Made by a program: the position numbers and the translations under genes. Shown one piece after another: positions 3,144 to 37,093 of a DNA stretch of 37,093 nucleotides. Numbering within the stretch: position 1 is the stretch's first letter; each line of letters opens with the position of its first letter. The notes beneath the pieces were generated by a model. It saw nothing but the letters and a program-made list of their open reading frames with translations, was not told the origin of the DNA and made no database searches. Source of the DNA: a virus (Duplodnaviria; Heunggongvirae; Uroviricota; Caudoviricetes); the IMG/VR virus record IMGVR_UViG_2740892211_000019; one strand, given 5' to 3'.

Positions 3144-3153
3144 CAGGTGCTTT

Positions 3154-3432: not shown

Positions 3433-3443
3433 AGGGCGTTGCG

Positions 3444-3796: not shown

Positions 3797-3888
3797 CGAT
3801 ACAAATAAAACATCAAATTAAATAAGAAAACGTGAAAACCATCCGTATTAACGGAGGTATTCGCACACGTAAATAATGGAGATATAAA

Positions 3889-6048: not shown

Positions 6049-8871
6049 ATGACGGCAGAGTACATCAGGGACTGGCAACAACCGCGCCACGCAGTGGGAC
6101 GTGAAGGAACGGGGATCCCCGTTCCTGAATCCGCGCTTTCCTCCTGGCTGGATGCCTACCGGGCAGAGAACGAGCGCCGCCAGGAAATGGCTGATGCGGC
6201 GTTCTCCGCCACGCCGCTGGGCAACCTGATTAATAAAAGCCTGGATGCACAGGAAAAACAGGACAAAACCATCACACTGGCAGGAGACGCCAGAAAACAG
6301 GTACGCGGTGCGGTGGATGAAGCCATGGCCTCGCTGCGCCTGCTGCCGTCCTATCTGCGCGATCCGCTTATTCGCCACCTCTCCTTCCTGCGCAAAAAAC
6401 AGGAAGCCGATCGCCGGAAAGGCAAAAAGAGCTGGCAGGCTGAACGCTACGCGCGCGGAACCCTGCGCAAAATATTCGAACGTCTGGACCGCACCGACCA
6501 CCGCTGGCTGACACCGGGTTATCGCTCCCTTGCCGGACGCGAACGCCTGGATGATTTGCTTTACCTGCCGCAGCTCAACAAGCACCAGATACAGACGCTG
6601 GCCACCATGACGGCGGCGATGTTCAGCAGCACCTTCGAAAAACTCTGCGATGGCTTTGGCGCGACTGATGGCGAGCTGACCATGGATGTAACGCTGAAGG
6701 CGTATCAGATGCTGGCCCGCATGGCGTTACACCTGCACGCCATGCCTCCGCATTATGACGCACTGACAACAGACAAAGACCGGAGGAACGAACCGGACAC
6801 GGAGCTGCTGCCGGGCGCAATCCTTCGCCTGACCTGTGCGGAATGGTGGAAACGCAAACTGTGGCTGTTACGTTGCGAGTGGCGGGAAGAACAACTCCGC
6901 GCCGCCTGTCTGGTTTCCAGAAAAACATCGCCCTATCTGAGCCAGGACGCGTTAAGCGAGTTTCGCGCACAGCGCGAGAAAACACGCGATTTCCTGAAAA
7001 GTTTCATGCTGGAAAACGAAGACGGGTTCACGATTGATCTCGAGACGGTGTATTACGCGGGAGTAAGTAACCCGGTTCACCGTAAGGCAGAAATGATGGC
7101 CACCATGAAGGGGCTGGAACTTCTGGCCGAAGCCCGTGGCGACAAAGCGGTGTTTCTGACTGTCACCTGCCCGTCAAAATACCACGCCACAACAGAGAAC
7201 GGTCATCCGAATCCCAAATGGAACGGGGCCACCATGCGCGACTCCAGCGATTACCTGGTTAACACGTTTTTTGCGGCGGTCCGCAAGAAACTGAACCGCG
7301 ACGGCCTGCGCTGGTATGGCATCCGCACGGTGGAGCCTCACCATGACGGCACCGTGCACTGGCATATGATGGTCTTTGCTCATCCGGAAGAAATCGACAC
7401 CATTGTGTCCCACACCCGCGATATTGCCATTCAGGAAGATCGTCACGAGCTGGGTGATGATATTACCCCACGCTTTAAGGCGGAGTACGTCGACGGCTCA
7501 AAAGGCACACCGACCAGCTACATCGCCACCTACATCGGGAAAAACCTGGACAGCCGTGCCGTGGATGGCATCGACCCGAAAACGGGCAAGCCACGCGTTG
7601 ACCACGAAACCGGAAAATCAATGGCCGAGAGCGTGGAACGCGCCATCGGCTGGGCGCGCCTTCACCGGGTCCGCCAGTTCCAGTTCTTTGGTATCCCCTC
7701 CCGTCAGGTGTGGCGTGAACTGCGCCGCCTTGCCAGCCAGATGGCTCGCAACCCGGAAGGACCGCAACGGCTGAAGGATGACGCAATGGACGCGGTTCTT
7801 GCTGCCGCTGATGCCGGATGTTTTGCCACCTACATAGAGAAACAGGGCGGCGTACTTGTTCCACGCAAGGACTACCTGATTCGCACCGCCTACGACCTCG
7901 CCGATGAGCTGAACGATTACGGTGAACAGAGCGTACAGATTTACGGGATCTGGTCACCGCTCATCGGGGAGTCTTCCCGCGTATGCACGCATCCGGACAA
8001 CTGGAAGCTGGTAAGACGCAAACCGGAAGCGGAAGACAGCGCCCGCGAAAATGGTTTTGACCTTCAGGGCGGCCCTGCCGCACCTTGGACTCGTGGCAAT
8101 AACTGTCCCCGTGTACAGGAAACGGACAACAACGGGACAGAACAGCCGGAAGAACGGCCAGCACCGTGGCCGCAGCTTCCTGACGGCGTTGACGTGAACG
8201 AATGGATGCGCTCACTGAAACGGCACGAACGCCGGGCGCTGATGCGTTCGCTGCGTGACAAACAGGCAAAAAACAGCAGTGATGAAATGCAGAGCTGGAC
8301 ACAGAGCCGCAAACAGCAGCGGCCTTTGCCTGATAACCACGAATTACTCGCTAAAGAATGGCGGGAATCTGCCGAATCTCTCGGCCTGCATATCGGTGAA
8401 CAGCAGATGCAGCACCTGTTACGGGGCGGCAGCCTGTACGTTGACGGCAGCATCATTGCACCGCAGGGATTTGAAATTGTACGCAAACCGGATACCCGCC
8501 CGGACAGCCGAATCACGCAGCTCTGGCAGCGCCTGAGCCGTAATCACGGCGTAAGCAGCACGGAGATCCGCCATAACCCGGTCGCCAGCTATCTGGAACA
8601 GCTGGGGGCATCAGACCCCGAAGCCGCCGCACGTCTGGCATCCACACTTCAGCAGGACCAGAACACCATGAACCCCCCCGTTACCGTGCTTTCTGACATG
8701 CTGCGCGCCATCCGCGACGCAGAGCACGCACAGAGAATCAGTGAAACCACTGAACGTGCCCGCCGCAAAGCAGACCTGCTGCGGGGTGGCCTGACCAGTG
8801 GAAACAAAAAACAGACAGAAACGGGATTCACAAATCCCGTAAATGAGCAAAAAACGCGCCGCGATATATGA
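6049..8871 (+). CDS. A: Replication initiation endonuclease (P2 gpA-like rolling-circle initiator), 940 aa
   Basis: ORF track. Contains the HUH-type metal-binding motif (HHDGTVHWHMMVF) and a tyrosine-bearing block (TSYIATYIGKN) typical of P2 A-family initiators; position matches P2 synteny. Longer than my recollection of P2 gpA. Confidence 0.9.
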   Translation: MTAEYIRDWQQPRHAVGREGTGIPVPESALSSWLDAYRAENERRQEMADAAFSATPLGNLINKSLDAQEKQDKTITLAGDARKQVRGAVDEAMASLRLLPSYLRDPLIRHLSFLRKKQEADRRKGKKSWQAERYARGTLRKIFERLDRTDHRWLTPGYRSLAGRERLDDLLYLPQLNKHQIQTLATMTAAMFSSTFEKLCDGFGATDGELTMDVTLKAYQMLARMALHLHAMPPHYDALTTDKDRRNEPDTELLPGAILRLTCAEWWKRKLWLLRCEWREEQLRAACLVSRKTSPYLSQDALSEFRAQREKTRDFLKSFMLENEDGFTIDLETVYYAGVSNPVHRKAEMMATMKGLELLAEARGDKAVFLTVTCPSKYHATTENGHPNPKWNGATMRDSSDYLVNTFFAAVRKKLNRDGLRWYGIRTVEPHHDGTVHWHMMVFAHPEEIDTIVSHTRDIAIQEDRHELGDDITPRFKAEYVDGSKGTPTSYIATYIGKNLDSRAVDGIDPKTGKPRVDHETGKSMAESVERAIGWARLHRVRQFQFFGIPSRQVWRELRRLASQMARNPEGPQRLKDDAMDAVLAAADAGCFATYIEKQGGVLVPRKDYLIRTAYDLADELNDYGEQSVQIYGIWSPLIGESSRVCTHPDNWKLVRRKPEAEDSARENGFDLQGGPAAPWTRGNNCPRVQETDNNGTEQPEERPAPWPQLPDGVDVNEWMRSLKRHERRALMRSLRDKQAKNSSDEMQSWTQSRKQQRPLPDNHELLAKEWRESAESLGLHIGEQQMQHLLRGGSLYVDGSIIAPQGFEIVRKPDTRPDSRITQLWQRLSRNHGVSSTEIRHNPVASYLEQLGASDPEAAARLASTLQQDQNTMNPPVTVLSDMLRAIRDAEHAQRISETTERARRKADLLRGGLTSGNKKQTETGFTNPVNEQKTRRDI

Positions 8872-8947: not shown

Positions 8948-9907
8948 ATGAAAATTTGTATCGACGACGGCTCCACCAACATCAAGCTGGCATGGACTGA
9001 GAATGGCGAACGCCGCAACGCCATCAGCCCGAACAGCTTCAAGTCGGAATGGTCTGCGCCGTTCGGTGGCATGCAGCCCGCGAACTACATGCTTGATGGC
9101 GTGCGCTATGGTTTTGATCCGGTCAGCGATCGCTTTGTCCAGACGACCGACACGCAATACCAGTACAGCGATGTGAATGTAATCGCCATTCATCACGCGC
9201 TGGTCAAATCAGGCATCACGCCACAGGAGGTGGATGTGGTTGTCACCCTGCCACTGAGCGAGTATTTCGACACAAACGCACAGCCGGACATGGCCAACAT
9301 CAACCGCAAAAAAGCGAACGTTATGCGCCCGGTGGAGTACCAGAACGGCGAAGCATTCACTATCCGTAACGTGCGGGTTATGCCTGAATCCATTCCGGCT
9401 GGCTTTAAAGCACTGGCTGACATGAGTCCGTTTGAATCCCTGCTGATTGTGGATTTAGGCGGAACCACGCTGGATGTGGCAAAGGTTCAGGGGCAACTGG
9501 CAGGTATCAGCCAGGTGTTTTGCGATCCACACGTAGGCGTCTCCCTGATGGCCGGTGCCGTGCTGTCGGTGATGGCCGCTAACGGTATGCGTACCAGTCA
9601 CCACATCGCCAATACCATTATCGAACATCGCCATGATGAAGCCTGGTTGCGCCAACACATCCACAATGACGCGCATTACGCCAGCCTGATGGCGGTTATT
9701 CGTGAAAAGGAAGAAACACTGAAACAACGCGTGATCCGCGCGCTGGCGGGTTTTTCGGGTTACGGGCGGGTGATGGTTGTCGGTGGCGGGGCGGAGATTG
9801 TGGCACCCGCTATCCGCGAAGCCTGCGGAGTTAATGCGACTTTCATCGCGGACGGGGTGCCACAGTTTGCTCTGGTTAATGGGCTGTACGCAATGGACAA
9901 GGAGTAA
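8948..9907 (+). CDS. parM: ParM/StbA-family actin-like ATPase (type II plasmid partition NTPase)
   Basis: Translation carries the ParM signature blocks as I recall them from plasmid R1 StbA/ParM: CIDDGSTNIKLAW, YSDVNVIAIHHAL, VMPESIPAGF, LLIVDLGGTTLDVAKV, VMVVGGGAE. RBS AAGGAAAAG before the ATG at 8948. Confidence 0.85.
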   Translation: MKICIDDGSTNIKLAWTENGERRNAISPNSFKSEWSAPFGGMQPANYMLDGVRYGFDPVSDRFVQTTDTQYQYSDVNVIAIHHALVKSGITPQEVDVVVTLPLSEYFDTNAQPDMANINRKKANVMRPVEYQNGEAFTIRNVRVMPESIPAGFKALADMSPFESLLIVDLGGTTLDVAKVQGQLAGISQVFCDPHVGVSLMAGAVLSVMAANGMRTSHHIANTIIEHRHDEAWLRQHIHNDAHYASLMAVIREKEETLKQRVIRALAGFSGYGRVMVVGGGAEIVAPAIREACGVNATFIADGVPQFALVNGLYAMDKE

Positions 9908-9911
9908 ACCA

Positions 9912-10226
9912 ATGACGACACCAACCAGACGGATAAGTTTCTATCTGAAGCCAGTCGCCGTCAATAGTGAACGGGAGGCGTGTAATTACCTCGACAGCCT
10001 GCCAGCCTCTGAACGCAGCCGCGCGCAACGCGCGGCCTTTCTGGCCGGGCTGGCACTCATAAAACGCGATCCTGCATTTGCCTATTGGTTGGCCGAATGG
10101 CCGGAAGAAGGAGCTGCGCCAGCCAAGAATAATATTCAGAGTAAATATGCCAGCACACCTGCCACCGGAAGCAATCACAGCACTAGCGAGATAAGAAAGA
10201 ACATTCAGTCATTTTTCCCAGAGTGA
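9912..10226 (+). CDS. parR: ParR/StbB-like centromere-binding protein (ribbon-helix-helix)
   Basis: ATG at 9912 with AAGGAG upstream, 4 nt after the parM stop. N-terminal beta-strand-like RISFYLKPV, then LDSLPASERSRAQRAAFLAGLAL, which closely matches my recollection of the R1 ParR core. Confidence 0.7.
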   Translation: MTTPTRRISFYLKPVAVNSEREACNYLDSLPASERSRAQRAAFLAGLALIKRDPAFAYWLAEWPEEGAAPAKNNIQSKYASTPATGSNHSTSEIRKNIQSFFPE

Positions 10227-10245
10227 AAACAGGAGAGGAGCATCT

Positions 10246-10707
10246 ATGGCAACTATCCCCAAAAAATGGTTACAACGCAAAATTGCAGACCTTGAATCGT
10301 GTCGTGAAGACATCCCGTTTGGCCTTGATGAAAACGATCACAATATGTTAATCGCACTGAAAATCGCACTCACATCGCTGGAAGCAGAGGCAGTTATGTT
10401 CTGTATATCAGGACAAAATGTAGATTCAGAAGAACATGTATCAACCAGCAAAGCGGTTGTTGATGCCTGGGTTGAAGAATGGAATCAGGTTGACGGAAGT
10501 CCTGGCGAACCACTGTACAAAACTATGCCACTCTACTATCACGCTGCCTTGCCAGCGCCGGTAGTGCCGGAAGAAGCAACTCCGGAAAACGTAGAAATGC
10601 TCTCTGGCTATGTTTCCACATACAAATTAACCGATAGCGAGCGCGATATTGCTGCCGAAATATGGAACGCCTGCCGCGCCGCTATGCTTCATGGGAAAGG
10701 AGAGTGA
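10246..10707 (+). CDS. Hypothetical acidic protein (153 aa), third gene of the parMR operon
   Basis: ORF track; RBS AGGAGAGGAG before the ATG at 10246. No family recognised. Confidence 0.6.
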   Translation: MATIPKKWLQRKIADLESCREDIPFGLDENDHNMLIALKIALTSLEAEAVMFCISGQNVDSEEHVSTSKAVVDAWVEEWNQVDGSPGEPLYKTMPLYYHAALPAPVVPEEATPENVEMLSGYVSTYKLTDSERDIAAEIWNACRAAMLHGKGE

Positions 10708-15295: not shown

Positions 15296-16348
15296 ATGAA
15301 TCTGGTGATGTCAGATATTACCCGCAACAAGCTGGGTTGCTATATGGCGCAGCAGGCGTCGCTTAACAATATCCCGGTTTCCGCACTGGTATCGCGATTT
15401 ACCGTGGAACCCGCGGTGCAGCAACGTTTTGAAAACGCCTCAAAGGAAAGTACCGAATTTACGAAAAGAATTAACGTGATCGGCGTGACCGACCAGAAAG
15501 GCGAAAAAATCCTCCCGGACACCACCGGGCCAATTGCGCGCACGAATAGCAGTTATGACGGCATCAAACGCCGTAACCCGAATAACGTGATCGATATGAA
15601 GTCTCGTCAGTACCAGTGCGAACAGGTGAACTACGATACCTTTATTTCGTACCCACAGCTTGATACCTGGGCGGCCCACAGCGATTTTCAGTCCCGTATC
15701 AGTACACAGATCGCCCGGCAGGTAGCGCTTGATCGCATCATGATTGGCTTTAACGGCACATCCCACGCCTACGAGTCTGATTTTCACACCAACAAGCTGC
15801 TTCAGGACGTAAACGTGGGCTGGCTGGAGCACATCAGAACCGATGCCAGCGAGCGCGTAATGAATGACGTGACGCTGACCTCCCGCAACATGGACAACAC
15901 TGTGGCGCACGCGGGTAAGTATGCGAATGCCGATGCTCTGGTACAGGATGCGCGCTCATCCCTGCTGGATGAATGGCACAAGGAAGCTGACGACCTCGTG
16001 GTGATTATGGGGCGCAACCTGTTTAACTCGCTGCGTCTGCCCGTGCTGAACAGCATCAGCGGCCAGAATCCCAATGCGGAATTACTTGCCGGGCAGCTCA
16101 TCCTGTCATCGCGCACCATTGGCGGGCTGGGCGTGTTCCTTGCGCCGTTCTTCCCGGATGCAACGATGCTTATCACCTCGTTCAACAACCTGTCGATTTA
16201 CTGGCAGAAAGGTTCAATGCGTCGCCTGATGAAAGACGAGCCGGAATACAACCGCATCGCCACCTACCAGTCCATCAATGACGCTTATGTCGTTGAAGAC
16301 TATGGCAAGTGCGCGATGATCACTGGCCTGAAGTTCGCCGACAGCTAA
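15296..16348 (+). CDS. N: Major capsid protein (P2 gpN-like)
   Basis: ORF track, 350 aa; size and synteny. Confidence 0.9.
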   Translation: MNLVMSDITRNKLGCYMAQQASLNNIPVSALVSRFTVEPAVQQRFENASKESTEFTKRINVIGVTDQKGEKILPDTTGPIARTNSSYDGIKRRNPNNVIDMKSRQYQCEQVNYDTFISYPQLDTWAAHSDFQSRISTQIARQVALDRIMIGFNGTSHAYESDFHTNKLLQDVNVGWLEHIRTDASERVMNDVTLTSRNMDNTVAHAGKYANADALVQDARSSLLDEWHKEADDLVVIMGRNLFNSLRLPVLNSISGQNPNAELLAGQLILSSRTIGGLGVFLAPFFPDATMLITSFNNLSIYWQKGSMRRLMKDEPEYNRIATYQSINDAYVVEDYGKCAMITGLKFADS

Positions 16349-17992: not shown

Positions 17993-18316
17993 GTGAGCAC
18001 CATTCAAACAGGGATCACAGAGCAGGTTATTGCGTGGCTCTTTGACCACCTGCCAACGGTGTATGCAGTAGGCGCGGCGGTCAGCATTTCCGCGCTGATG
18101 AGTCTTTATGACGGACGAACACTGGTTCAGACCGTAACGGGATCGCTGGCGTGCGGCGTTCTTGCCATGGCCGTGGCCGGGTCGCTGCGCTTCTTCGGGA
18201 TCCCTGAGGATGCAGTGACGTTTTTTGGTGCCTCAATCGGTTTTATGGGCGCAGAGAAAGCACGCGACAAGGTTATTGCAATATTTGATCGCAGGGTGAA
18301 GGAGAGGAACGAATGA
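17993..18316 (+). CDS. Putative holin
   Basis: GTG start at 17993 after GGGGAG. Product is small with hydrophobic stretches (AVGAAVSISALMSL, LACGVLAMAVAGSL) and sits at the gpY position before the endolysin. Confidence 0.55.
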   Translation: MSTIQTGITEQVIAWLFDHLPTVYAVGAAVSISALMSLYDGRTLVQTVTGSLACGVLAMAVAGSLRFFGIPEDAVTFFGASIGFMGAEKARDKVIAIFDRRVKERNE

Positions 18317-18705
18317 GCAACACATTTAAATTCAGCAGCCGGAGCGAAAAGAATTTGCAGGGTGTAAATCCTGATCTGGTGAAAGTGACCCGACGGGCGC
18401 TGGAAATCTCGGAAGTGGATTTTGGTATCACCGAAGGATTGCGCAGTCGTTATCGTCAGAAGCAGCTCGTGACCACAGGCAAGAGCCAGACCATGAACAG
18501 TCGCCATCTCACAGGGCATGCCGTGGATGTTGTGGCTTATGTCGGCAACCAGGTGTCATGGGAATGGCCGCTGTACGAAAAAATCGCAGCAGCATTCAGA
18601 CAGGCCAGCCAGGAACTGAATATTCCGGTGGAATGGGGCGGCGACTGGAAGACCCTGAAAGACGGACCGCATTTTCAGTTACCACACGGAGCCTATCCGG
18701 CATGA
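18313..18705 (+). CDS. Endolysin, peptidase M15-type (Zn-dependent D-Ala-D-Ala / L-Ala-D-Glu peptidase family)
   Basis: SRHLTGHAVDV matches the H-x6-D zinc-ligand pattern of M15 peptidases; 130 aa; located between the holin and the spanins. Confidence 0.7.
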   Translation: MSNTFKFSSRSEKNLQGVNPDLVKVTRRALEISEVDFGITEGLRSRYRQKQLVTTGKSQTMNSRHLTGHAVDVVAYVGNQVSWEWPLYEKIAAAFRQASQELNIPVEWGGDWKTLKDGPHFQLPHGAYPA

Positions 18706-19097
18706 AGCTCTGGCCCACGCTTGGCGTCGCTTTCCTTCTGATTACATCCATGCGTCTGTCGTGGTCGCTGGGCCGGGAGAACGCCAGAAACGAAGCGCAG
18801 GCCAGCACCCTGAAAAGTACCGTCGACACACTGAATATCATCAGCGCCGGGGTACAGGATATGCAGCAGGTGCTGGCTCAGCTCCGCGCGGAAAATCAGC
18901 AACGCAATCAGGACGGAGAGGTAAGACGTGAACAGCTACGCAACGATATTGCAAAAGATGAATGCGCCCACGCTTTGCCTGACGCTCGTTTTACTGACAG
19001 GTTGCGCAGGCACGCAGAACGCGCCAGGGCCAGCGCCGTCAGTCCGGCTTATACCGCAGACGCTGACCATGCCGGTAACGCCTCCCCCCTTCCCTGA
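18702..19097 (+). CDS. Rz-like i-spanin (LysB analogue)
   Basis: ATG at 18702 overlaps the endolysin stop. N-terminal TM segment (LWPTLGVAFLLITSM) followed by a charged coiled-coil-like region. Confidence 0.6.
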   Translation: MKLWPTLGVAFLLITSMRLSWSLGRENARNEAQASTLKSTVDTLNIISAGVQDMQQVLAQLRAENQQRNQDGEVRREQLRNDIAKDECAHALPDARFTDRLRRHAERARASAVSPAYTADADHAGNASPLP

Positions 19098-19239
19098 CCC
19101 ACCCACATGGGGAAACCTCGGAATATGGGGCGACCGCCTTCTGGATGCACTGGAAACCTGTAACGCGGATAAACGGGCCATTGCTGAACTGGATAAGAGA
19201 ATAGCCGAACTGACACACCAGACGGGAGTAACACAATGA
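18928..19239 (+). CDS. Rz1-like o-spanin lipoprotein (LysC analogue), in the +1 frame overlapping Rz
   Basis: Signal peptide with lipobox LLTGC and a proline-rich mature region. Start may instead be the internal ATG at 18958. Confidence 0.55.
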   Translation: MNSYATILQKMNAPTLCLTLVLLTGCAGTQNAPGPAPSVRLIPQTLTMPVTPPPFPDPPTWGNLGIWGDRLLDALETCNADKRAIAELDKRIAELTHQTGVTQ

Positions 19240-21113
19240 CCAGTAAGAACTTTGCACTGATTACAGCCATGACACAGGCTGAACTGACTCAAAAGGTGAA
19301 TGAACATCTTGCGAAAGGGTGGCATCTTCAGGGGGAGACGCGGGTTGCCTACGAACCCGGCACCCCGTGGTATCTAATGCAGGCAATGGTGGCCGATGGC
19401 ACTACAGACATCTCACCTGATTCCCCCCAGCACGGCAGCGTGCCGGAGTGGTATTACGTGGTGGTACTTGCTGGTCAATCCAATGCCATGTCATATGGTG
19501 AGGGAATGCCGCTGCCGGATTCTTACGATGCGCCCCACCCACGCATTAAGCAACTGGCCCGTCGCAACACAGTGACTCCCGGTGGTAAAGCATGCGCATT
19601 TAACGACATCATTCCGGCAGACCACTGCCTGCATGATGTTCAGGATATGAGCGCACTGAATCACCCGAATGCAGACCTGAGCAAAGGGCAGTATGGCTGT
19701 GTCGGACAGGGCTTGCATATTGCCAAACGCCTGTTGCCTTACATTCCACAGAATGCCGGGATTTTACTGGTTCCATGCTGTCGTGGTGGTTCGGCATTCA
19801 CCCAGGGCGCGGAGGGGACATTCAGCGAGTCCACAGGAGCCAGTCAGGATTCGGCTCGCTGGGGTGTGGGTAAACCTTTATATCAGGACCTGATTTTGCG
19901 CACGAAGGCCGCATTGCAGAAAAACCCAAAAAACATGCTGCTGGCCGTATGCTGGATGCAGGGCGAATTTGACATGAGCGCCGCTACGTACTCACAGCAA
20001 CCTCCGCTGTTTACGGCCATGCTGAAACAGTTTCGTGCGGACATTACCGAGTTTAACACGCAGTGTCATGGAGGCAGAGCGGCAAGTGTGCCATGGATTT
20101 GTGGTGACACGACGTATTACTGGAAAAACACCTACGGCACGCAGTACGACACCATTTACGGGGCGTACAAAAACAGGGAGAGCGACAACGTTTTCTTTGT
20201 GCCGTTCCTGACCGATGGTAGTGGCAACAATACCTCCACCAACGCACCAACGGAAGATCCGGATGCTGCAAGTGAGGGATATTACGGTTCGGCATCCCGA
20301 ACGAACAAAAACTGGGTATCATCAAATCGCCAGACGCATTTCAGCTCATGGGCGCGTCGTGGCATTATTCCCGATCGTATGGCAACCGCTATTCTGAACG
20401 TAGCCGGTCGCACCTTAGCCTTCATCAGTGGTAAGGCACCGGAAATCAAACCCTCGCCCGGCGGCGACACGCCATCGGGGCCGTCTGAAGATGCATCCGT
20501 ACGCACAATCTCCCTGTTGCCGACAGCCGGAGATGCTGCTGCGCAGGGCTGGAGCATTAAGAATGGCGGAATTCAGTTGTCAGAGGGTGTATTTAAGATC
20601 ACCAAGCAGAGCAATAAAACCTGGTCCCTGACGCGCCCGGTGGATGACGCAGTCTCCCTGCTGACACGGGGTGGCAGACTGAGCTGTAAGTTTCGACTGT
20701 CAGGCGCACTGACCAACAATCAGTTCGGTCTGGGAATTTATCTGTATACCGATGTAGCGTTACCTGACGTCGTGGCGATGACCGGGACTGGTAACCCGTT
20801 CCTGATGTCGTTCTTCACCCAGACCACAGACGGCAAACTGAATCTGATGCATCACAAGAAAGCAGGAAACACAAAGTTGGGCGAGTTCGGGAATTACAGT
20901 AACGACTGGCAGACGCTGGAGCTGGTGTTCACCGCCGGCAGTGCCACGGTTACTCCGAAACTGAATGGAGTGGCTGGCCCGGCATTCCAGGTCATAAAAG
21001 ACAGTCTGACACTGGGGCTGAATGCGCTGACGTTAACTGATATCACTAAAAATGCCGCGTACGGCGTCGATATCGGCAGCCTGGTGCTGGAAATCAATAA
21101 TCCCGCAGCATAA
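19236..21113 (+). CDS. NanS-p-like sialate O-acetylesterase (N-terminal DUF1737-like domain, SGNH/SASA esterase domain, C-terminal domain of unknown function)
   Basis: VVVLAGQSNAMSYGEG is the GQSN nucleophile block of sialate O-acetylesterases. N-terminus (ALITAMTQAELTQKVNEHLAKGWHLQGE) resembles the DUF1737 leader of prophage NanS-p proteins. Inserted between the lysis cassette and gpR. Confidence 0.7.
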   Translation: MTSKNFALITAMTQAELTQKVNEHLAKGWHLQGETRVAYEPGTPWYLMQAMVADGTTDISPDSPQHGSVPEWYYVVVLAGQSNAMSYGEGMPLPDSYDAPHPRIKQLARRNTVTPGGKACAFNDIIPADHCLHDVQDMSALNHPNADLSKGQYGCVGQGLHIAKRLLPYIPQNAGILLVPCCRGGSAFTQGAEGTFSESTGASQDSARWGVGKPLYQDLILRTKAALQKNPKNMLLAVCWMQGEFDMSAATYSQQPPLFTAMLKQFRADITEFNTQCHGGRAASVPWICGDTTYYWKNTYGTQYDTIYGAYKNRESDNVFFVPFLTDGSGNNTSTNAPTEDPDAASEGYYGSASRTNKNWVSSNRQTHFSSWARRGIIPDRMATAILNVAGRTLAFISGKAPEIKPSPGGDTPSGPSEDASVRTISLLPTAGDAAAQGWSIKNGGIQLSEGVFKITKQSNKTWSLTRPVDDAVSLLTRGGRLSCKFRLSGALTNNQFGLGIYLYTDVALPDVVAMTGTGNPFLMSFFTQTTDGKLNLMHHKKAGNTKLGEFGNYSNDWQTLELVFTAGSATVTPKLNGVAGPAFQVIKDSLTLGLNALTLTDITKNAAYGVDIGSLVLEINNPAA

Positions 21114-21136
21114 GGAAGAGCAGGAGAGCAAAACAG

Positions 21137-21604
21137 ATGCTTAAGACAAACAGTCTGCGAGAGTCCATGCTTCATGGGTGTCGGTGGTGCCAGGCTAATC
21201 CCGAGAAATTCACCATTTTCGTGGAGAGCGGCAACATTGAAACGACCGGAGAAGCGCCCTCGTTTGTTTACCGCTATCAGATGGTGATGTTTGTCATGGA
21301 TTACGCCGGAGAGCTGGACGACCTCACGCTGCCGCTGCTGGCGTGGTTATCCGAAAATCAGCCACAGTTGTTGCTCAATCCGGAGCGTAATCAGGACATC
21401 AAATTTTCTGCCGTTATCAATGACGATGACAGCGCCGATCTCCTGTTTACGCTCCCCCTGCGGGAACGCGTTCGCATCACGCGCAACAGTCAGGGCACAC
21501 CGCAGGCAGAACACCTGCCGGAGCCAAAACCCCGTCTGCCTTCTTCCGAAGGCGACTGGTCGCATGTATTCCAGGATGTGACGTGGGGTGAAAGCGATGG
21601 ATAA
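21137..21604 (+). CDS. R: Tail completion protein R (P2 gpR-like)
   Basis: ORF track, 155 aa; RBS AGGAG; synteny. Confidence 0.85.
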   Translation: MLKTNSLRESMLHGCRWCQANPEKFTIFVESGNIETTGEAPSFVYRYQMVMFVMDYAGELDDLTLPLLAWLSENQPQLLLNPERNQDIKFSAVINDDDSADLLFTLPLRERVRITRNSQGTPQAEHLPEPKPRLPSSEGDWSHVFQDVTWGESDG

Positions 21605-22232
21605 GGCATTCACCCGCGTGGATGAAACCTTTGAGGCTATCCGCGACAGCCTGAATCAGCAGGCCATCAATAACATCGCCAGAAAGCTGGCACAGGATTT
21701 ACGTCGCGCCCAGCAGGCACGTATCCGGTCACAAAAAGCGCCGGACGGGACCGAATGGACACCACGCAGACGCCGCGTAACCCGGATACAGGAGCGCATT
21801 CGCTTTATCTGGAATAACGAAGCACGCACGCTGAAAAACTGGCATCACGACACAGGGAAATACGGGCGAACCATTACCGGGTGGGATGAGGATAAAAACA
21901 ATATCCGCACGTTTTACCGGGATGACATCGACCGTTTTCTGGAAATACGCACCCGGCGCATCAACCAGGACAGCACAAAGCGCGTCCCCATGTTCGTAAA
22001 ACTGCGCACCGCCCGCTACCTGAAAGCCCGTGCAGATGCCTCCGGTGTGACGGTGGGTTACAGCGGCGTGGCCGCACGTATTGCACGCGTTCATCAGTTC
22101 GGTGAGCGCGATCAGGTTGCGCCGGGCATTTTCACCGATTACCCGGTACGTGAGCTGTTGGGTATCAGCCAGGCAGATGAGCGCCTGATTTATAACACGG
22201 TGCTGGGCCGGATTGCGGAGGCTGTACGGTGA
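21588..22232 (+). CDS. S: Tail completion / virion morphogenesis protein S (P2 gpS-like)
   Basis: ORF track; start ambiguous (21588 or 21597), overlapping the end of R. Confidence 0.75.
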   Translation: MKAMDKAFTRVDETFEAIRDSLNQQAINNIARKLAQDLRRAQQARIRSQKAPDGTEWTPRRRRVTRIQERIRFIWNNEARTLKNWHHDTGKYGRTITGWDEDKNNIRTFYRDDIDRFLEIRTRRINQDSTKRVPMFVKLRTARYLKARADASGVTVGYSGVAARIARVHQFGERDQVAPGIFTDYPVRELLGISQADERLIYNTVLGRIAEAVR

Positions 22233-22810
22233 GCGCAGAACTCATGCGACTGCTGAGCAACATCATCCGCACCGGGATCATCTCTGAAGTTGATGAGAAG
22301 TCCTGGCGCGTGCGCGTTCGCAGCGGCGAACTGGAAACAGGCTGGTTGCGCTGGAACACCACGCGCGCGGGAGCCTTCAATGTGTGGCTGCCGCCATCAC
22401 CAGGCGAACAGGTGGTAATTGCCTGCATTGGCGGCAACCCGGAAACCGCCATGATAATTGGCAGCCTGTGGAGTGATGCCAGTCCGGCCCCCGGCAAAAG
22501 CCTGAAAGAAATCGTGGTCAGCGCGCCGGATGGCGCGGTGTTCCGCTACGACGCAGACGCTGGCGCACTGAGCGCCAGCGGCATGAAAACAGCCACCCTG
22601 CAGGCATCCGTCAGCGTGACACTGGATACGCCCGTCGTGGAATGCACAAACCTTCTGAGAACGGCGACGCTTGACGTCACAAAAGGGGGAAAGATGAGCG
22701 GCAATATCACGCACAGCGGCGGCAATTTCACCTCAAACGGCATTACCGTGCATACGCATAAGCACGGTGGCGTTAAAGGTGGCAGCGATTCGACAGGAGG
22801 CCCGCAGTGA
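22229..22810 (+). CDS. V: Baseplate spike / assembly protein V (P2 gpV-like)
   Basis: ORF track, 193 aa; synteny. Confidence 0.85.
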   Translation: MSAELMRLLSNIIRTGIISEVDEKSWRVRVRSGELETGWLRWNTTRAGAFNVWLPPSPGEQVVIACIGGNPETAMIIGSLWSDASPAPGKSLKEIVVSAPDGAVFRYDADAGALSASGMKTATLQASVSVTLDTPVVECTNLLRTATLDVTKGGKMSGNITHSGGNFTSNGITVHTHKHGGVKGGSDSTGGPQ

Positions 22811-24658: not shown

Positions 24659-26670
24659 CAGCGAAATACTACGCCATTCTGACTAATCAGGGCGCGGAAC
24701 GACTGGCTAACGCGACGATGCTCGGCAGTAAGCTGAATTTGACGCAAATGGCCGTTGGTGATGCAAATGGTGTGTTACCAACACCAAACCCTGCACAAAC
24801 AAAACTGATTAACCAGAAACGCATTGCACCGCTGAATCTTCTGAATGTTGACCCTAACAATCAGAGCCAGATTATTGCGGAGCAAATCATCCCTGAAGAC
24901 GAGGGAGGATTCTGGATCCGTGAGATTGGTCTTTATGATGATAAAGGTGTACTCATTGCGGTGGCAAACTGCCCGGAAACGTACAAACCGCAGTTGCAGG
25001 AAGGCAGTGGACGCACCCAGACTATCCGCATGATTCTGGTTGTCACGAACACCAAAGCCATCACGCTGAAAATCGACCCGTCTGTGGTTCTGGCAACCCG
25101 CAAATATGTGGATGATAAAATCTCAAAGCACGAGCAGTCACGACGTCACCCGGACGCCTCGCTGACCGCAAAAGGCTTTGTTCAACTCAGTAGCGCCACT
25201 AACAGCGATTCTGAAACGCTGGCTGCAACGCCGAAAGCGGTTAAGGCCGCGTATGACCTTGCTAACGCAAAATATACCGCTCAGGACGCCACGACGGCAC
25301 GAAAAGGCATTGTCCAGCTCAGTAGCGCCACCAACAGCGATTCAGAAACGCTGGCGGCAACACCAAAGGCGGTAAAGGCAGCCTATGACCTTGCTAACGG
25401 GAAATATACCGCACAGGACGCCACGACGGCACAAAAAGGAATTGTCCAGCTCAGTAGTGCAACCAACAGCACATCTGAAACGCTTGCTGCAACACCGAAA
25501 GCAGTGAAAGCAGCTAATGACAATGCGAATGGTCGGGTACCTTCTGCCCGTAAGGTGAATGGTAAGGCGCTTTCGGCGGATATAACACTGACGCCGAAAG
25601 ATATTGGTACGCTTAACTCAACAACAATGTCATTCAGCGGTGGTGCTGGTTGGTTCAAATTAGCAACGGTAACCATGCCACAGGCGAGTTCTGTTGTTTC
25701 AATTACGTTGATTGGTGGCGCTGGATTTAACGTCGGTTCACCTCAACAGGCAGGTATATCTGAACTTGTTTTGCGTGCAGGTAATGGTAATCCGAAGGGG
25801 ATTACTGGTGCTTTATGGCAGCGCACATCGACAGGGTTTACAAATTTTGCCTGGGTCAATACATCTGGTGATACTTACGATATTTACGTTGCAATCGGAA
25901 ATTATGCGACTGGTGTAAATATTCAATGGGATTATACCAGTAATGCCAGCGTGACGATTCATACGTCACCAGCATATTCTGCTAATAAGCCGGAAGGGTT
26001 AACGGACGGTACAGTTTATTCACTCTATACGCCATCAGAGCAGTTTTATCCGCCTGGCGCACCAATCCCGTGGCCATCGGATACCGTTCCGTCTGGTTAT
26101 GCCCTGATGCAGGGGCAGACTTTTGACAAATCTGCATACCCAAAACTTGCAGCGGCTTATCCGTCAGGCGTGATCCCTGATATGCGTGGCTGGACGATTA
26201 AGGGCAAACCCGCCAGTGGCCGGGCCGTATTGTCTCAGGAACAGGACGGCATTAAATCGCACACCCACAGCGCCAGCGCATCCAGTACGGATTTGGGTAC
26301 GAAAACCACATCGTCGTTTGATTACGGGACGAAAACAACCTCACTATTTGACTATGGGACCAAAACTACCAGTAACGACGGGAGTCACACGCATTCAATA
26401 CCAACATCAGATGGTGCAAACCAGGGGGGGAAAATTCCACTGACATCTGGGCGTCTGGCAACTCAATATACATCAGCAACAACAGGTTCCTCTGGCTCAC
26501 ATTCTCATACTGTAGGTATTGGTTCTCATCAGCACACTGTCGGTATTGGTGCACACACGCACTCCGTTGCGATTGGCTCACATGGACACACCATCACCGT
26601 TAACGCTGCTGGTAACGCGGAAAACACCGTCAAAAACATCGCATTTAACTATATTGTGAGGCTTGCATAA
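24655..26670 (+). CDS. H: Tail fibre protein H
   Basis: ORF track, 671 aa. Contains three tandem 44-aa repeats and a C-terminal His-rich block (HTHS ... [34 protein letters not shown]) typical of phage fibre tips. Confidence 0.85.
25171..25566 (+). repeat. Three in-frame tandem direct repeats of 132 bp (44 aa) inside tail fibre gene H
   Basis: Nucleotide copies are phased at 25201, 25333 and 25465 (AACAGC... anchor); protein unit [29 protein letters not shown]. Confidence 0.8.
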
Positions 26671-27248
26671 TGGCATTCAGAATGAGTGAACAATCACGGA
26701 CCATAAAAATTTATAATCTACTGACCGGAACCAATGAGTTTATTGGTGAAGGTGATGCATACATTCCACCTCATACAGGTCTGCCAGCAAACAGTACCGA
26801 TATTGCCCCGCCAGATATTCCGGCTGGCTTCGTGGCCGTTTTCAACAGTGATGAGGCATCGTGGCATCTCGTTGAAGACCATCGGGGTAAAACGGTTTAT
26901 GACGTGGCATCAGGGGACTCGTTATTTATTTCTGAACTCGGTCCATTACCGGAAAATGTTACCTGGTTGTCGCCGTATGGAGAGTATCAGAAGTGGAACG
27001 GCACATCCTGGGGGAAAGATGCAGAAGCAGAAAAACTGTTTCGGATAAGGGAGGCGGAAGAAACAAAAAACAGCCTGATGCAGGTAGCCAGTGAGCATAT
27101 TGCACCACTTCAGGATGCTATAGATTTAGATATTGCGACGGAGGAAGAGACATCGTTACTGGCTGCATGGAAGACATATCGAGTATTGTTGCATCGTGTT
27201 GATACAACAGTAGCAGCAGATATTGAGTGGCCAGTCGCCCCACAATAA
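26670..27248 (+). CDS. G: Tail fibre assembly chaperone G
   Basis: ORF track, 192 aa; start overlaps the H stop; synteny. Confidence 0.8.
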
Positions 27249-27256
27249 AAAGAAAA

Positions 27257-27282
27257 AGCCATCGATAGAAATATCGATGGCT
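27257..27282. terminator. Bidirectional intrinsic terminator (AGCCATCGATA-gaaa-TATCGATGGCT)
   Basis: Perfect 11-bp stem. The T-tract is strong on the minus strand (TTTTCTTTTTATT after the stem) and weaker on the plus strand. Separates G from the convergent acetyltransferase gene. Confidence 0.65.
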
Positions 27283-27291
27283 TTATGTACT

Positions 27292-27897
27292 CTATTTATA
27301 CAATACAGCACCGCTCTTTTTAGTTATATATGTGCAGTTCGATGGTATATCTTTATTTATAAAAGACATTGCACCTATTTTTACATTATCCCCAATTTTA
27401 CGGGATAATCCAATGATGCAACAATTAGCTCCGATATCAACGTTGCTACCAATTTTTACTCTTGAACCAGGTATGTCACCATCTATCTGTCCAATGGTCG
27501 TATTCTGTCGTAACACCAGATTTTCACCAGCATCAACAGCAAAATGAACAACAATTCCAGCATGATGGGGAATTGTTAACCCTTTTCCAATATTTGCGCC
27601 CAATCCAATTTCGCAACCAAATTTGTTAATTATTTTACTGTTTAACTTCTTGGCTGCTTTCTTATGTAATTTATTACCATTAATATACATTTCGTTAGCC
27701 AACCGCCACCAGAAAAGGAAATTCCTGTTACGCTGCTTTTTCTCTCTTAAAAGCCTCCAGATATCCATACGTTTCCGCCGAATTACTTCATGTTTCCAGA
27801 AGTTTTTTAAATTAGTAGAGTTCCCAAATAAAACAAAGTGAATTGCCATTAGGTAAGACAGCACGATAATCTCCTTAATTATTATTTCAGACCACAC
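27292..27897 (-). CDS. Hexapeptide-repeat (left-handed beta-helix) acetyltransferase, CysE/WcaB-like
   Basis: C-terminal half is built of hexapeptide repeats (GCEIGLGANIGKGLTI ... VKIGSNVDIGANCCIIG ... IGDNVKIGAMSFI). Visibly AT-rich gene at the P2 Z/fun hotspot position. Start codon uncertain: GTG at 27897, or ATG at 27849 or 27768. Confidence 0.7.
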   Translation of the reverse strand: MWSEIIIKEIIVLSYLMAIHFVLFGNSTNLKNFWKHEVIRRKRMDIWRLLREKKQRNRNFLFWWRLANEMYINGNKLHKKAAKKLNSKIINKFGCEIGLGANIGKGLTIPHHAGIVVHFAVDAGENLVLRQNTTIGQIDGDIPGSRVKIGSNVDIGANCCIIGLSRKIGDNVKIGAMSFINKDIPSNCTYITKKSGAVLYK

Positions 27898-28020
27898 ATG
27901 TTATAAGGTTAAGAGATTATAAAATCCTGTTGTTTATTATTCAAAAACAATTTTCTGAGAAGGACATACAACAGCAAGTCGCCAGTCACCTTCATCAGGA
28001 AATTGGCGACATACGTTAAA

Positions 28021-28515
28021 TCAGAGCAGCCCCTTAACTGAGCTGGCCGCGCTATTAAGGGATGATGTCACCTTATCTTTGAAGCCGGACAACATATCGC
28101 TGAACGATGAGGATTGCAGGCGCTCCCGCAAATCCTCATCACAGCGTTCAAGAGTCAGTGAAAATTCTATCTTTTTCGCCTTACCGTAGCGATCAAACTC
28201 GGAACGGGTCGTATTCGTTTCAGTCAGTACATACATGCCGTAAATCTGCCCGACACCATCAATCAGAGGCCAGGGCCGTCCTGTATATGCCTGCGTGGTC
28301 AGCAATGAAAGCGACACTTCGCCACCTGTAATTTCAGGATAAAGCACGCCGGAAAGCACAATGCGATCATCACCTGCACCGATATACTGCCAGCTTGCTG
28401 AACGGTTAACGCGTTCATTTTTCACATGCCGCCAGCTTTTGTTTTGCTGTAACTGCTGATGCGGCAATGTGCGCAGCTCAAAAACAAACATGCCGTAGAT
28501 CATCATCATGACCAT
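28021..28515 (-). CDS. U: Tail protein U (P2 gpU-like)
   Basis: ORF track, 164 aa; follows the tape-measure gene on the minus strand. Confidence 0.85.
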   Translation of the reverse strand: MVMMMIYGMFVFELRTLPHQQLQQNKSWRHVKNERVNRSASWQYIGAGDDRIVLSGVLYPEITGGEVSLSLLTTQAYTGRPWPLIDGVGQIYGMYVLTETNTTRSEFDRYGKAKKIEFSLTLERCDEDLRERLQSSSFSDMLSGFKDKVTSSLNSAASSVKGLL

Positions 28516-33593: not shown

Positions 33594-33750
33594 AGCTTCA
33601 GCCCCTTGTATCCGTTAAATGATTCGGCAACAATCATCACCCACCACGCGCGTAATCTCACCCCTGCGCCGTTCTCCCGCCACGGCGACAACAAAAAGCA
33701 GTAACCCCCTCCGCACGCACATGCGACCATGCCGCACAGGGAGGGAGCAG

Positions 33751-34860
33751 ATGACCGACACCACCATGCAATTGCTCAGTCAGGGCACAGACCCCGTAAA
33801 AATGCCGGATTTTGATATTCTCGCGGAGGGTAAAACGCTGTCAGGCGTGGCAGAGCGCCTGATGAGCCTGTCACTGACCGACAACCGGGGATTTGAGGCG
33901 GACCAGCTCACCATCACGCTGGATGATGCGGATGGTCAGTTGCAGCTACCGCCACGGGGCGCGCGCCTGACGGTTCTCATTGGCTGGAAGGGAGAACCGC
34001 TGACAGAAAAAGGCACTTACATTGTTGATGAAATCGCTCACGAAGGACCGCCGGACAGGCTGACTGTTTCAGCCAGAAGCGCAGATTTTCGGGATGAATT
34101 TAACGTTAAACATGAGGTGTCCTGGCATGATGTGACCGTTGAGCGTGTGGTATCCGCCATCGCTCATCGGTATGGTCTGAAACCGCAAATCAGCGAAATG
34201 CTGATGGATATCGAAATCGACCACGCCGACCAGACCGAAGAAAGCGACATGTCCTTCCTTACGCGCATGGCGGAAATGCTGGGCGCAATCACCACGGTAA
34301 AAAGCGGCAATCTGTTATTCATCATGCCAGGTGGTGGCGTGAACGCACAGGGCCAGCCGTTGCCCTCGTTCGCCATTACACGCAGCAGCGGCGATCGCCA
34401 TCAGTTCCGCATTGCTGACCGCGAGGCGTATACGGGGGTACGCGCCTACTGGCTTGATCTTAATTACGGGAAAAAGAAAAAAGTCAGCGTGAAACGCCGT
34501 AAACCGCCAAAACCCAAAAAGGAGAAAAGCAGCAGCCGTGAAGGTGATTATATGGAAGGCGCGGAAGGCAATGTGTTTGTGTTACGCAAGACTTATCAGA
34601 ACGAGCAGGCAGCAAGACGCGCAGCGGCGGCAAAGTGGCAGCAACTACAACGCGGAGCCGCATCATTCTCCATCACGCTGGCGCGTGGACGTGCAGAACT
34701 CTACCCCGAAATGCATGGCACGGTAACAGGATTTAAAAGCGAGATTGATAATCAGGACTGGATTATTGCAAAAGCCGAGCACACCATTGATAACAGCGGC
34801 TTTACCACGCAGCTTGAGCTTGAGGCAAAAATCCCGGAATGGATAGCGGAAACAGAGTGA
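33751..34860 (+). CDS. D: Tail protein D (late control gene D product)
   Basis: ATG at 33751 with GGGAGGGAG upstream, inside ORF 33619..34860. N-terminus (LLSQGTDPVKMPDF ... SLTDNRGFEADQL) resembles P2 gpD as I recall it. Confidence 0.85.
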   Translation: MTDTTMQLLSQGTDPVKMPDFDILAEGKTLSGVAERLMSLSLTDNRGFEADQLTITLDDADGQLQLPPRGARLTVLIGWKGEPLTEKGTYIVDEIAHEGPPDRLTVSARSADFRDEFNVKHEVSWHDVTVERVVSAIAHRYGLKPQISEMLMDIEIDHADQTEESDMSFLTRMAEMLGAITTVKSGNLLFIMPGGGVNAQGQPLPSFAITRSSGDRHQFRIADREAYTGVRAYWLDLNYGKKKKVSVKRRKPPKPKKEKSSSREGDYMEGAEGNVFVLRKTYQNEQAARRAAAAKWQQLQRGAASFSITLARGRAELYPEMHGTVTGFKSEIDNQDWIIAKAEHTIDNSGFTTQLELEAKIPEWIAETE

Positions 34861-34902: not shown

Positions 34903-35163
34903 ATGTTCCGTTGTCCGCTTTGTGGCGCATCTGCCCGTATCCGCACCAGTCGTCCGGAAAATGATTCAAACACCGTGCGGCAAAAGTATTACCAGTGTAA
35001 CAACCTGGAATGCGGCGTATGCTTCTCAACACTGGAAGCTTTCCATAAATTCACATCGAAACACGCCTCCGGCGTTCACTCATCAGAAGGTATCCCGTGG
35101 CATGAGCTGCCAGCTTCACACAGGGGAAACAATCAGATGAGTTTGCCTTTACCTCAGAATTAA
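34903..35163 (+). CDS. ogr: Ogr/Delta-family zinc-finger late-gene transcription activator
   Basis: MFRCPLCG ... YYQCNNLECGVCF shows the Cys4 zinc-finger spacing of Ogr; position after D matches P2. Confidence 0.85.
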   Translation: MFRCPLCGASARIRTSRPENDSNTVRQKYYQCNNLECGVCFSTLEAFHKFTSKHASGVHSSEGIPWHELPASHRGNNQMSLPLPQN

Positions 35164-35354: not shown

Positions 35355-35495
35355 ATGTCGCAAAAATCGCTTACGGCCATCACATTCTGCGTGACGGCAA
35401 TCCTCATCATCTGGATGCTGCACGGTTCGCTGTGTGAAATACGGATGAGTTTCTGGGGAGCGGAGTTTGCGGCGTTCTTACAGTGTAAGCAGTAA
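35355..35495 (+). CDS. hok: Hok/Gef-family type I toxin (46 aa)
   Basis: Hand translation MSQKSLTAITFCVTAILIIWMLHGSLCEIRMSFWGAEFAAFLQCKQ: TM helix, then the conserved SLCE(I/L) and AAF(L/M) blocks of Hok proteins. AAGGAG RBS 8 nt upstream. An overlapping upstream frame (35252..35437) may be mok-like. Confidence 0.7.
   Translation: MSQKSLTAITFCVTAILIIWMLHGSLCEIRMSFWGAEFAAFLQCKQ

Positions 35496-35800: not shown

Positions 35801-37093
<1,293 letters not shown>

Follow-up and report, generated by a model that had tools for sequence, protein, structure and literature searches.

The 37,093-nucleotide stretch of DNA analyzed here, hereafter the window, comes from a tailed virus (Caudoviricetes; IMG/VR record IMGVR_UViG_2740892211_000019), and its positions 19236..21113 on the plus strand encode a NanS-p-family sialate O-acetylesterase located in the late operon of a P2-type prophage. 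In our preferred reading, which we consider reasonably probable, the enzyme is a late-operon product that is released by lysis, is probably docked on the capsid, and is modular, with an N-terminal head and a body of separate history. The reading builds on the following observations: (i) the protein belongs to the NanS-p family and retains intact catalytic motifs, (ii) the gene lies between the lysis and tail completion genes and is coupled to the former, (iii) the protein has a chimeric history, and (iv) the type of its head is associated with the type of the virion. NanS-p proteins have so far been treated as a trait of lambdoid and Shiga toxin (Stx) phages of enterohaemorrhagic Escherichia coli (EHEC) that feeds the lysogen, and as far as the searchable literature shows, a NanS-p esterase in P2-like phages is undescribed.

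A NanS-p-family esterase in a P2-type late operon

The gene is one uninterrupted open reading frame (ORF) that starts with ATG and encodes 625 amino acids (aa). A first-pass annotation, made by a model from the letters alone, had described a DUF1737-like N-terminus, an SGNH esterase core and an extra C-terminal domain, and had proposed a profile search for the SASA/SGNH and DUF1737 domains. Both were found in Pfam, and all three parts score above the gathering cut-offs: DUF1737 (PF08410) at aa 4-53 with 28.8 bits against 24, SASA (PF03629) at aa 75-271 with 44.3 bits against 24.8, and DUF6645 (PF20350) at aa 476-586 with 70.2 bits against 27. A PHROG 143 match spans the protein end to end, and no NCBIfam model matched it. 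The gene and its parts, with motif positions taken from alignment A1 of the window esterase and five other NanS-p proteins, are as follows.

19236..21113, plus strand: NanS-p-family sialate O-acetylesterase gene (RefSeq WP_000202148.1, named 'DUF6645 domain-containing protein')
19245..19394, plus strand: DUF1737 head of a P2-lineage-specific type (aa 4-53; Pfam PF08410), predicted to dock on the capsid
19395..19439, plus strand: Ser/Pro-rich linker 1 (aa 54-68, 'DGTTDISPDSPQHGS'; alignments A1 and A3), hypervariable between copies
19440..20399, plus strand: NanS-like SASA/SGNH esterase domain (aa 69-388; match to 3PT5)
19476..19484, plus strand: codons of Gln81-Ser82-Asn83 in Block I, GQSN (catalytic Ser82; Gln81 of the oxyanion hole; motif position in A1)
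19959..19967, plus strand: codons of Gln242-Gly243-Glu244 in SASA Block III, (H)QGE, invariant in A1
20328..20339, plus strand: codons of Arg365-Gln-Thr-His368, the last SGNH block with the catalytic His; R-x-x-H invariant in A1
20400..20522, plus strand: Pro/Ser/Gly-rich linker 2 (aa 389-429, '...PEIKPSPGGDTPSGPSEDAS...'; alignment A1)
20523..21101, plus strand: C-terminal lectin-like jelly-roll domain, DUF6645 (aa 430-622), of type I as in phage 434 (match to 6YP6; Pfam)

Residues 69-388 align with E. coli NanS of known crystal structure (3PT5, E 1.7e-125) and residues 430-622 with the C-terminal domain of 'NanS-p' (6YP6, E 1.6e-29), and the protein is ~80% identical to the 434, Stx1a-phage and Stx2-86 proteins. 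Block I (G80-Q81-S82-N83, aa 80-83) is invariant in A1, and the QGE and R-x-x-H motifs are intact; the roles of these motifs, the catalytic Ser and the Gln of an inverted oxyanion hole among them, have been defined in an SGNH review and in a NanS-p diversity paper. The proposal of a NanS-p-like sialate O-acetylesterase by the first-pass annotation is thus upheld. Its expectation that such an enzyme must show a His/Asp pair does not suit the family: the last block of the window protein reads R-Q-T-H, with a His but no Asp partner in place of the classical Block V Asp-x-x-His, the corresponding block of other NanS-p proteins reads RSSH, RASH or RPTH (NanS-p diversity paper), and the Block V Asp is absent from E. 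coli NanS as well (SGNH review), so that a missing Asp is no argument against activity. Three of the four aromatic residues proposed as carbohydrate-binding in the C-terminal domain of phi24B (NanS-p diversity paper) are conservatively kept in the window protein (F497, Y502 and F527), and the equivalent of F611 is L593. Chromosomal E. coli NanS (YjhS, 3PT5) shares the GQSN, QGE and His motifs and the absence of a Block V Asp, but it is a single-domain protein that has neither a DUF1737 head nor a lectin domain. Its gene belongs to the nanCMS operon and not to a phage, and the protein is exported to the periplasm. By its sequence, the window protein is a NanS-p-family member with intact catalytic motifs, and sialate O-acetylesterase activity is predicted for it. 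The ORF, its domains and its neighbours are confirmed far beyond chance. The protein thus belongs to a known family and has been sequenced hundreds of times under an uninformative annotation; its RefSeq name conceals what is probably a sialate O-acetylesterase, carried by hundreds of clinical genomes.

Positions 18300-22300 of the window are 100% identical to many chromosomes of E. coli sequence type 131 (ST131), including EC958, JJ1887 and uk_P46212; a window coordinate equals the EC958 locus coordinate minus 1701. Upstream of the esterase gene are gpL, gpX, a holin, an M15 endolysin, a LysB-like i-spanin and LysC, and downstream are gpR, gpS and gpV. Gene-by-gene profile matches therefore confirm the P2-type backbone, with the lysis cassette upstream and gpR downstream, that had been proposed at first pass. 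The genes and segments of the locus that bear on the argument are the following.

15296..16348, plus strand: P2-family major capsid protein gpN (Pfam Phage_cap_P2, E 8e-116), putative candidate for the docking partner
18702..19097, plus strand: LysB-like i-spanin (DUF2570) of the lysis cassette (PHROG 214 'Rz-like spanin'; RefSeq annotation of the identical EC958 locus)
18979..19239, plus strand: LysC, an Rz1-like o-spanin (Pfam LysC PF23793, E 1.6e-13; EC958 annotation), with its TGA at 19237-19239
19184..21178, plus strand: segment differing from the empty site of phage P88 (variant lysC 3' end, whole esterase gene, variant gpR 5' end; alignment to P88 locus L004)
21114..21136, plus strand: 23-nt spacer between the esterase stop and gpR, with the gpR ribosome-binding site (GGAG) and no terminator
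21137..21604, plus strand: gpR tail completion protein (Pfam P2_Phage_GpR, E 1.4e-38)
21597..22232, plus strand: gpS virion morphogenesis/tail completion protein (Pfam Phage_tail_S; EC958 annotation)

The habitual context of NanS-p genes, a lambdoid slot between the antiterminator Q/stx and holin S, is replaced here by the lysC-gpR slot of a Peduoviridae P88-like prophage; the Q/stx-to-holin S slot is the usual surrounding of the family, not a biochemical criterion of it. The esterase ATG overlaps the lysC stop in an ATGA ('cacaATGAcc'), and a GGAG is located 7 nt upstream. Promoter-like sites (2 against 2.9 expected from shuffled sequence) and terminator-like sites (5 against 4.8) are not in excess, and none is positioned to serve the esterase gene; the Ogr-type late-promoter dyad TGT-N12-ACA is matched exactly at 4 sites where chance would give 9, in no case near the operon start or the gene. 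The G+C content of 0.54-0.56 across 19-21 kb is that of the flanks. Together, the overlapping start, the short spacer, the lack of an excess of promoter- and terminator-like sites and the flank-like composition give no indication of expression from a repressed prophage and point to late co-expression. The genes gpR and gpS, which are essential for tail completion in P2 and belong to its O-to-S late operon, lie downstream, so any production of virions entails transcription across the esterase gene. The protein begins with a folded DUF1737 domain and not with a signal peptide, so export of the enzyme requires lysis. The gene looks, on these sequence features, like a late-operon gene rather than a classical self-contained moron, and it is probably expressed late.

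The first-pass annotation had called the gene a moron. The part of this claim that holds is the presence/absence polymorphism between collinear phages (P88 and others lack the gene); a deviant composition, an own promoter and an own terminator, which would also be expected of a moron, are not seen at the gene, and its start overlaps lysC. A classical lysogenic-conversion moron would be made in the lysogen independently of induction and would let ST131 grow on mucin-derived 9-O-acetylated sialic acid (Neu5,9Ac2). According to the literature, EHEC strains grow less well on Neu5,9Ac2 once nanS-p alleles are deleted, and NanS-p enzymes in recombinant form remove acetyl groups from mucin glycans; the window locus is conserved across 373 complete genomes, many of them of gut-adapted extraintestinal pathogenic E. 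coli (ExPEC) ST131. Besides the absence of promoter and terminator signal above chance and the reading of gpR and gpS through the gene, this explanation meets the difficulty that, without a signal peptide, a lysogen could not export the enzyme unless it lysed, whereas chromosomal NanS is periplasmic. Lambdoid nanS-p itself is among the most strongly induced late genes in the Stx-phage literature, where it acts as a late gene on induction, and spontaneous induction in a subpopulation would account for the growth benefit in EHEC just as well. We therefore consider expression as a classical moron unlikely.

Chimeric structure of the protein

In phages of the P88 type (P88, PhiR44_2, P884B11, 520873 and others), the flanks are ~95% identical to those of the window gene but enclose no esterase. 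The comparison of boundaries that had been proposed at first pass thus shows that the gene truly interrupts the lysC-to-R junction. Homology between the window and P88 stops at 19183, 56 nt before the lysC stop, and resumes at ~21179, 42 nt into gpR, so that ~1,995 bp of the window replace 93 bp of P88. Since its lysC 3' end and its gpR 5' end differ from those of P88, the cassette points to homologous exchange with another esterase-carrying P2-like phage; the boundaries indicate a source that already carried the gene and disfavour direct insertion from a lambdoid phage.

Homology of the window to lambdoid nanS-p DNA (434, JLK-2012 and Stx1a phages; blastn) is 85-86% and covers only 19442-21113, that is, it begins at query position 443, at codon ~69, and runs to the stop codon. 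The 72-aa N-terminus alone, compared with 50,697 phage genomes at E<=1e-3, found only three P2-type records and no lambdoid phage; a word-indexed protein search with it returned only fragments of the same protein, and an exhaustive HMMER search gave only 11 matches at E<=1e-3, including the stand-alone DUF1737 mini-proteins P0015-P0017. Thus, the cross-family transfer suggested at first pass holds for the part from codon ~69 to the stop but not for the whole gene, the head being P2-specific. Heads are 22-33% identical between the window and lambdoid copies and 55-95% identical among P2-like carriers, and the body of the window protein is 63-88% identical to lambdoid bodies; linker 1 has an identity of 0-25% between copies. 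Pairwise identities of the head (aa 1-55) and of the C-terminal domain differ as follows.

Window and L033 (a second P2-like lineage): head 55%, C-terminal domain 36%
Window and 434: head 31%, C-terminal domain 88%
Window and VT2-Sakai: head 22%, C-terminal domain 34%
L033 and VT2-Sakai: head 30%, C-terminal domain 56%

The P2-type and lambdoid heads, including the gp84-type head of VT2-Sakai, are homologous (hhalign probability 97%, E 1e-10, 22% identity). Among P2 carriers, the head shows 11 synonymous and 3 non-synonymous differences, with a ratio of non-synonymous to synonymous rates (dN/dS) of 0.063, and is under strong purifying selection.

The NanS-p proteins of 434 (UMO75335.1), Stx1a and JLK-2012 share with the window protein the three-domain architecture, the type-I lectin domain and the catalytic motifs, and from residue ~69 they are 85-88% identical to it in protein and 85-86% in DNA. 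The heads of these lambda-type-virion proteins are only 31-33% identical to the window head, which has a 4-residue longer loop. Their slot also differs, being located between Q/stx and holin S and not between lysC and gpR of a P2-type late operon, and 434 nanS-p has its own ribosome-binding site and flanking terminators, whereas the window gene is translationally coupled to the upstream gene. The Traversvirus NanS-p proteins (phi24B gp84, vb_24B_21, 933W Z1466 and VT2-Sakai orf42), to which the C-terminal domain structure 6YP6 belongs, are homologous to the window protein in all three domains, with 67% identity in the esterase core, but their heads and C-terminal domains are only 22% and 34% identical to it.

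IMG/VR contains two further P2-like lineages with an esterase in the lysC-gpR slot, L030, whose head is 95% identical to that of the window, and L033, an E. coli lineage with a different endolysin type that is present in 14 complete genomes. The L033-type esterase has the same slot and the same P2-type head family but another type of body, closer in its C-terminal domain to VT2-Sakai than to the window. Between the two P2 lineages the heads are 55-57% identical, and gpR, gpV, gpS and gpL are 58%, 58%, 46% and 69% identical, respectively, which is consistent with a head inherited along with the P2 backbone. The 400-bp gap between the esterase and gpR of L033 (L033 7972-8372) contains an ORF for a 54-aa membrane-like protein (MGFIHQIMLYFSTAVSLLYLISGGYKAV...), which complete genomes annotate as a member of the DUF1378 family. 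In Stx phages, a DUF1378 gene is located between nanS-p and S (NanS-p diversity paper); the ORF in L033 looks like a lambdoid hitch-hiker and suggests flow of the body from lambdoid to P2-like phages.

To compare heads with virions, we sorted 189 IMG/VR loci by the types of their head and C-terminal domain and by flanking markers, with the packaging/virion module taken within 10 kb.

434/R12-type head: lambda-type Nu1/A/B/E in 30 loci, Traversvirus in 0
VT2-type head: Traversvirus terminase/portal/major capsid protein in 26 loci (21 plus 5), lambda-type in 0
Head type 63-65% identical to VT2: only a distant terminase, in 4 loci
P2-type head: P2 genes in 36 of 38 loci

The head type matches the packaging/virion module without exception in the 56 lambdoid loci. 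C-terminal type I (at least 90% identical to the window or 434) occurs with 434-, R12- and P2-type heads, and C-terminal type II with two different head types. The Traversvirus Stx2-86, examined as a would-be counterexample, combines a window/434-type body (~79% overall identity to the window protein) with a Traversvirus head that is essentially identical to the VT2-Sakai head, including Tyr42, Gly54 and SISSP. The head type thus follows the virion module, and the bodies cross phage families. The loci L193-L204 carry a further type of DUF1737 head, with 63-65% identity to the Traversvirus one, together with a terminase 23-24% identical to lambda gpA and C-terminal domains of the VT2 type (99-100% identical) or of another type, which suggests a fourth virion lineage with its own head.

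Exchange of the body appears to be ongoing. Copies in a P2 context share 99-100% of their DNA sequence in lysC, head and linker, and their bodies range from 86.6% to 100%. By fine mapping, a ~1-kb patch in L023 (about 19660-20640) is 86.6% identical to the window and 97.5% identical to lambdoid-context copies; judged from these identities, it is a gene-conversion tract. The idea that mosaic breakpoints fall exactly at the head/body boundary was rejected, since conversion patches such as that of L023 lie inside the body; the boundary (~19442) marks only the limit of homology to lambdoid copies. The esterase body is in this respect a portable region of homology between unrelated prophages of one chromosome. 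Seven IMG/VR contigs join P2 genes and lambdoid genes on opposite sides of the esterase: four hybrids (L007/L043, which are on the same contig, L020 and L024) have gpL-gpX-lysC and a P2 head upstream and lambdoid S/R/Rz downstream, and the three reciprocal ones (L050, L062 and L102) have a lambdoid head with gpR/gpS/gpV downstream. Because such a junction was found in none of 5,426 complete E. coli genomes, we set aside the explanation that these contigs are real inter-prophage recombinants and treat them as draft-assembly joins; they are probably joins through the shared body, among which rare real recombinants could be present.

Probable capsid docking and the proposed fate of the enzyme

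In phi24B, the NanS-p protein gp84 was identified as a virion protein by proteomics and cryo-electron microscopy; its residues 2-57 (DUF1737) form a hexamer, anchored by Tyr42, in the hexon pore on the 3-fold axis of a T=9 capsid, and the protein is cleaved in its Ser/Pro linkers (preprint 10.64898/2026.04.10.717836). Linker 1 of the window protein is the positional counterpart of the proposed processing site. The first-pass annotation had set an esterase against a structural tail component; the homologue phi24B gp84, and only it, has in part turned out to be structural, as a capsid-decorating protein bound through DUF1737. By reasoned inference from homology, from lineage-specific divergence of the head under purifying selection, and from its co-variation with the virion type, the window esterase would dock on a P2-type T=7 capsid through its DUF1737 head.

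The mechanism that we propose is as follows. The esterase gene would share the late transcript of the P2-type operon, which extends from the capsid genes over the lysis cassette to gpR/gpS, and its translation would be coupled to that of lysC, so that the enzyme would accumulate in the cytoplasm late in infection and leave the cell at lysis. The DUF1737 head would be inherited with the P2-type virion genes and joined by the Ser/Pro linker to an esterase and lectin body that is repeatedly swapped by homologous recombination with nanS-p copies of co-resident lambdoid prophages. By homology to phi24B gp84, the head would dock the enzyme at least transiently on P2-type capsid hexons, possibly followed by proteolytic release. 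For the substrate and the ecological role, we infer that the esterase and lectin domains strip 9-O-acetyl groups from mucin sialoglycans, which would benefit virions in mucus, surviving kin lysogens through usable Neu5Ac, or both.

Several observations weigh against this mechanism. The phi24B docking rests on one preprint that is not yet peer-reviewed, and the only hexon occupied by the phi24B head is the flat one on the 3-fold axis (10.64898/2026.04.10.717836). VT2-Sakai orf42 carries Tyr42, Gly54 and SISSP exactly as phi24B gp84 does, but the loop 'AYEPGTPWY' of the window protein has Thr43 at the Tyr42 position, with W45/Y46 in the same loop; the window protein keeps Gly55, followed by 'TTDISPDSP', so that the SISSP processing motif is not conserved ('DISPDSP'). 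P2 capsids are T=7 and are without the 3-fold-axis hexon used by phi24B, which is a T=9 podovirus, whereas the window phage is contractile-tailed and of the P2 type. The major capsid protein of the esterase-less phage P88 is 94% identical to that of the window and shows no diagnostic difference between carriers and non-carriers, so that co-adaptation of the capsid is not visible. A search of a Protein Data Bank copy found no DUF1737 chain. The head was also modelled with AlphaFold from its single sequence, but the low confidence (pLDDT 58.5) precluded a fold search, and only the order of secondary-structure elements, a helix followed by strands, agrees with the published description. Linkage and homology-dependent recombination alone could also produce the association of head and virion, since a diverged head is unable to recombine and a conserved body is able to, with no functional coupling needed. 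Finally, about 4 of 20 P2-context copies checked are truncated, with esterase ORFs of 218 (L011), 286 (L021), 286 (L026) and 273 (L027) codons behind an intact head, which argues that the gene is dispensable and decaying in some lineages.

Part of these observations would fit a public-good enzyme that is freed at lysis without virion association, its head serving only for folding or oligomerisation and its correlation with the backbone being a by-product of linkage. The late-operon placement and the missing signal peptide agree with such an enzyme as well, as do the T=7 capsid without the phi24B hexon class, the lack of conservation of Tyr42, the 94% identity of major capsid proteins in carriers and non-carriers, and recombination tracts inside the conserved body, as a purely homology-driven process predicts. 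It accounts less well for a head that is held at a dN/dS of 0.063 and yet is only 22-33% identical to lambdoid heads, with bodies at 63-88%, a pattern that fits co-adaptation to lineage-specific partners, and for the match of head type and packaging/virion module in all 56 lambdoid loci. We regard a public good of this kind as rather doubtful, though less so than expression as a moron. A virion-borne esterase could instead aid infection, de-O-acetylating O-antigen or sialic-acid capsular polysaccharides and so exposing the phage receptor, a role that Stx-phage reviewers have raised as a possibility and that is compatible with a late-made, virion-associated enzyme. The catalytic domain, however, closely resembles NanS, an enzyme that acts best on free 9-O-acetyl Neu5Ac, and a position on the capsid rather than the tail is unusual for receptor-modifying enzymes; we consider this role very improbable.

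The docked, lysis-released enzyme of our preferred reading leads to a broader proposal, which we put forward tentatively and rate as less likely than not: DUF1737 would be a capsid-type-specific adaptor and NanS-p a modular plug-in decoration, with a co-adapted head for each of the lambda-type, Traversvirus and P2-type virions. If so, (i) enzyme and lectin cargo would be swapped between co-resident prophages at or behind the linker, (ii) T=7 capsids of Peduoviridae would bear an unrecognised, enzymatically active decoration protein aimed at host mucus, and (iii) a conserved ST131 prophage would release mucin-modifying particles on induction. The domain-level mosaic lends independent comparative support to the claim from cryo-electron microscopy that DUF1737 is a capsid anchor, and suggests a general design of a lineage-specific anchor with exchangeable glycan-active cargo. 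Confirmation would extend the mechanisms of phage-mucus interaction to Peduoviridae and would provide a natural scaffold for enzyme display on capsids.

Carrier prophages and other genes of the window

Among 5,426 complete E. coli genomes, 373 carry at least 80% of the stretch 18300-22300, and in EC958 the prophage adjoins serS. The carrier prophage is conserved across the pandemic ExPEC lineage ST131 and was earlier discussed only as a possible 'tailocin', in a pangenome paper that describes the conserved ST131 P2-like prophage and leaves the esterase unmentioned. In INPHARED, the gene occurs at >=99% identity only in three truncated Peduoviridae records. A collection of genome contigs with one genome per species, searched with the full-length alignment and strict patterns, gave matches only in Escherichia sp., in E. 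albertii and to head-less NanS-like genes, the latter in Proteus and one Bacillota metagenome-assembled genome; the P2-type head found nothing in this one-genome-per-species collection under the strict patterns.

Several other features of the prophage were observed. ParM-like and plasmid-partitioning/stability genes at window ~7480-8760 (9181-10459 in the EC958 locus L003) directly follow the replication endonuclease gene; for a P2-type phage that is integrated, such cargo is unusual. An ORF for a 46-aa Hok/Gef-family toxin, named by analogy to EC958, is located at the right prophage end (35355-35495, plus strand), adjoining ogr (34903-35163) and preceding serS (35801-37093, minus strand). The late control gene gpD is an intact 413-aa ORF in the window (33619-34860, plus strand) and is split in the EC958 RefSeq annotation; the pangenome paper discusses a 'frameshifted late control gene' in the ST131 P2-like prophage, and the apparent gpD defect is strain- or annotation-specific. 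The G+C content falls sharply to 0.38-0.43 at ~26500-28500, in the region of tail-fibre and tail-fibre-assembly genes, where EC958 carries an invertible host-range segment, with a recombinase and fibre fragments in opposite orientations; from the tail-fibre region to serS, the window is ~1.3 kb shorter than EC958, and strains differ there. A second stretch of low G+C content (0.41-0.43) covers positions 2000-4000, in the early region with small hypothetical genes.

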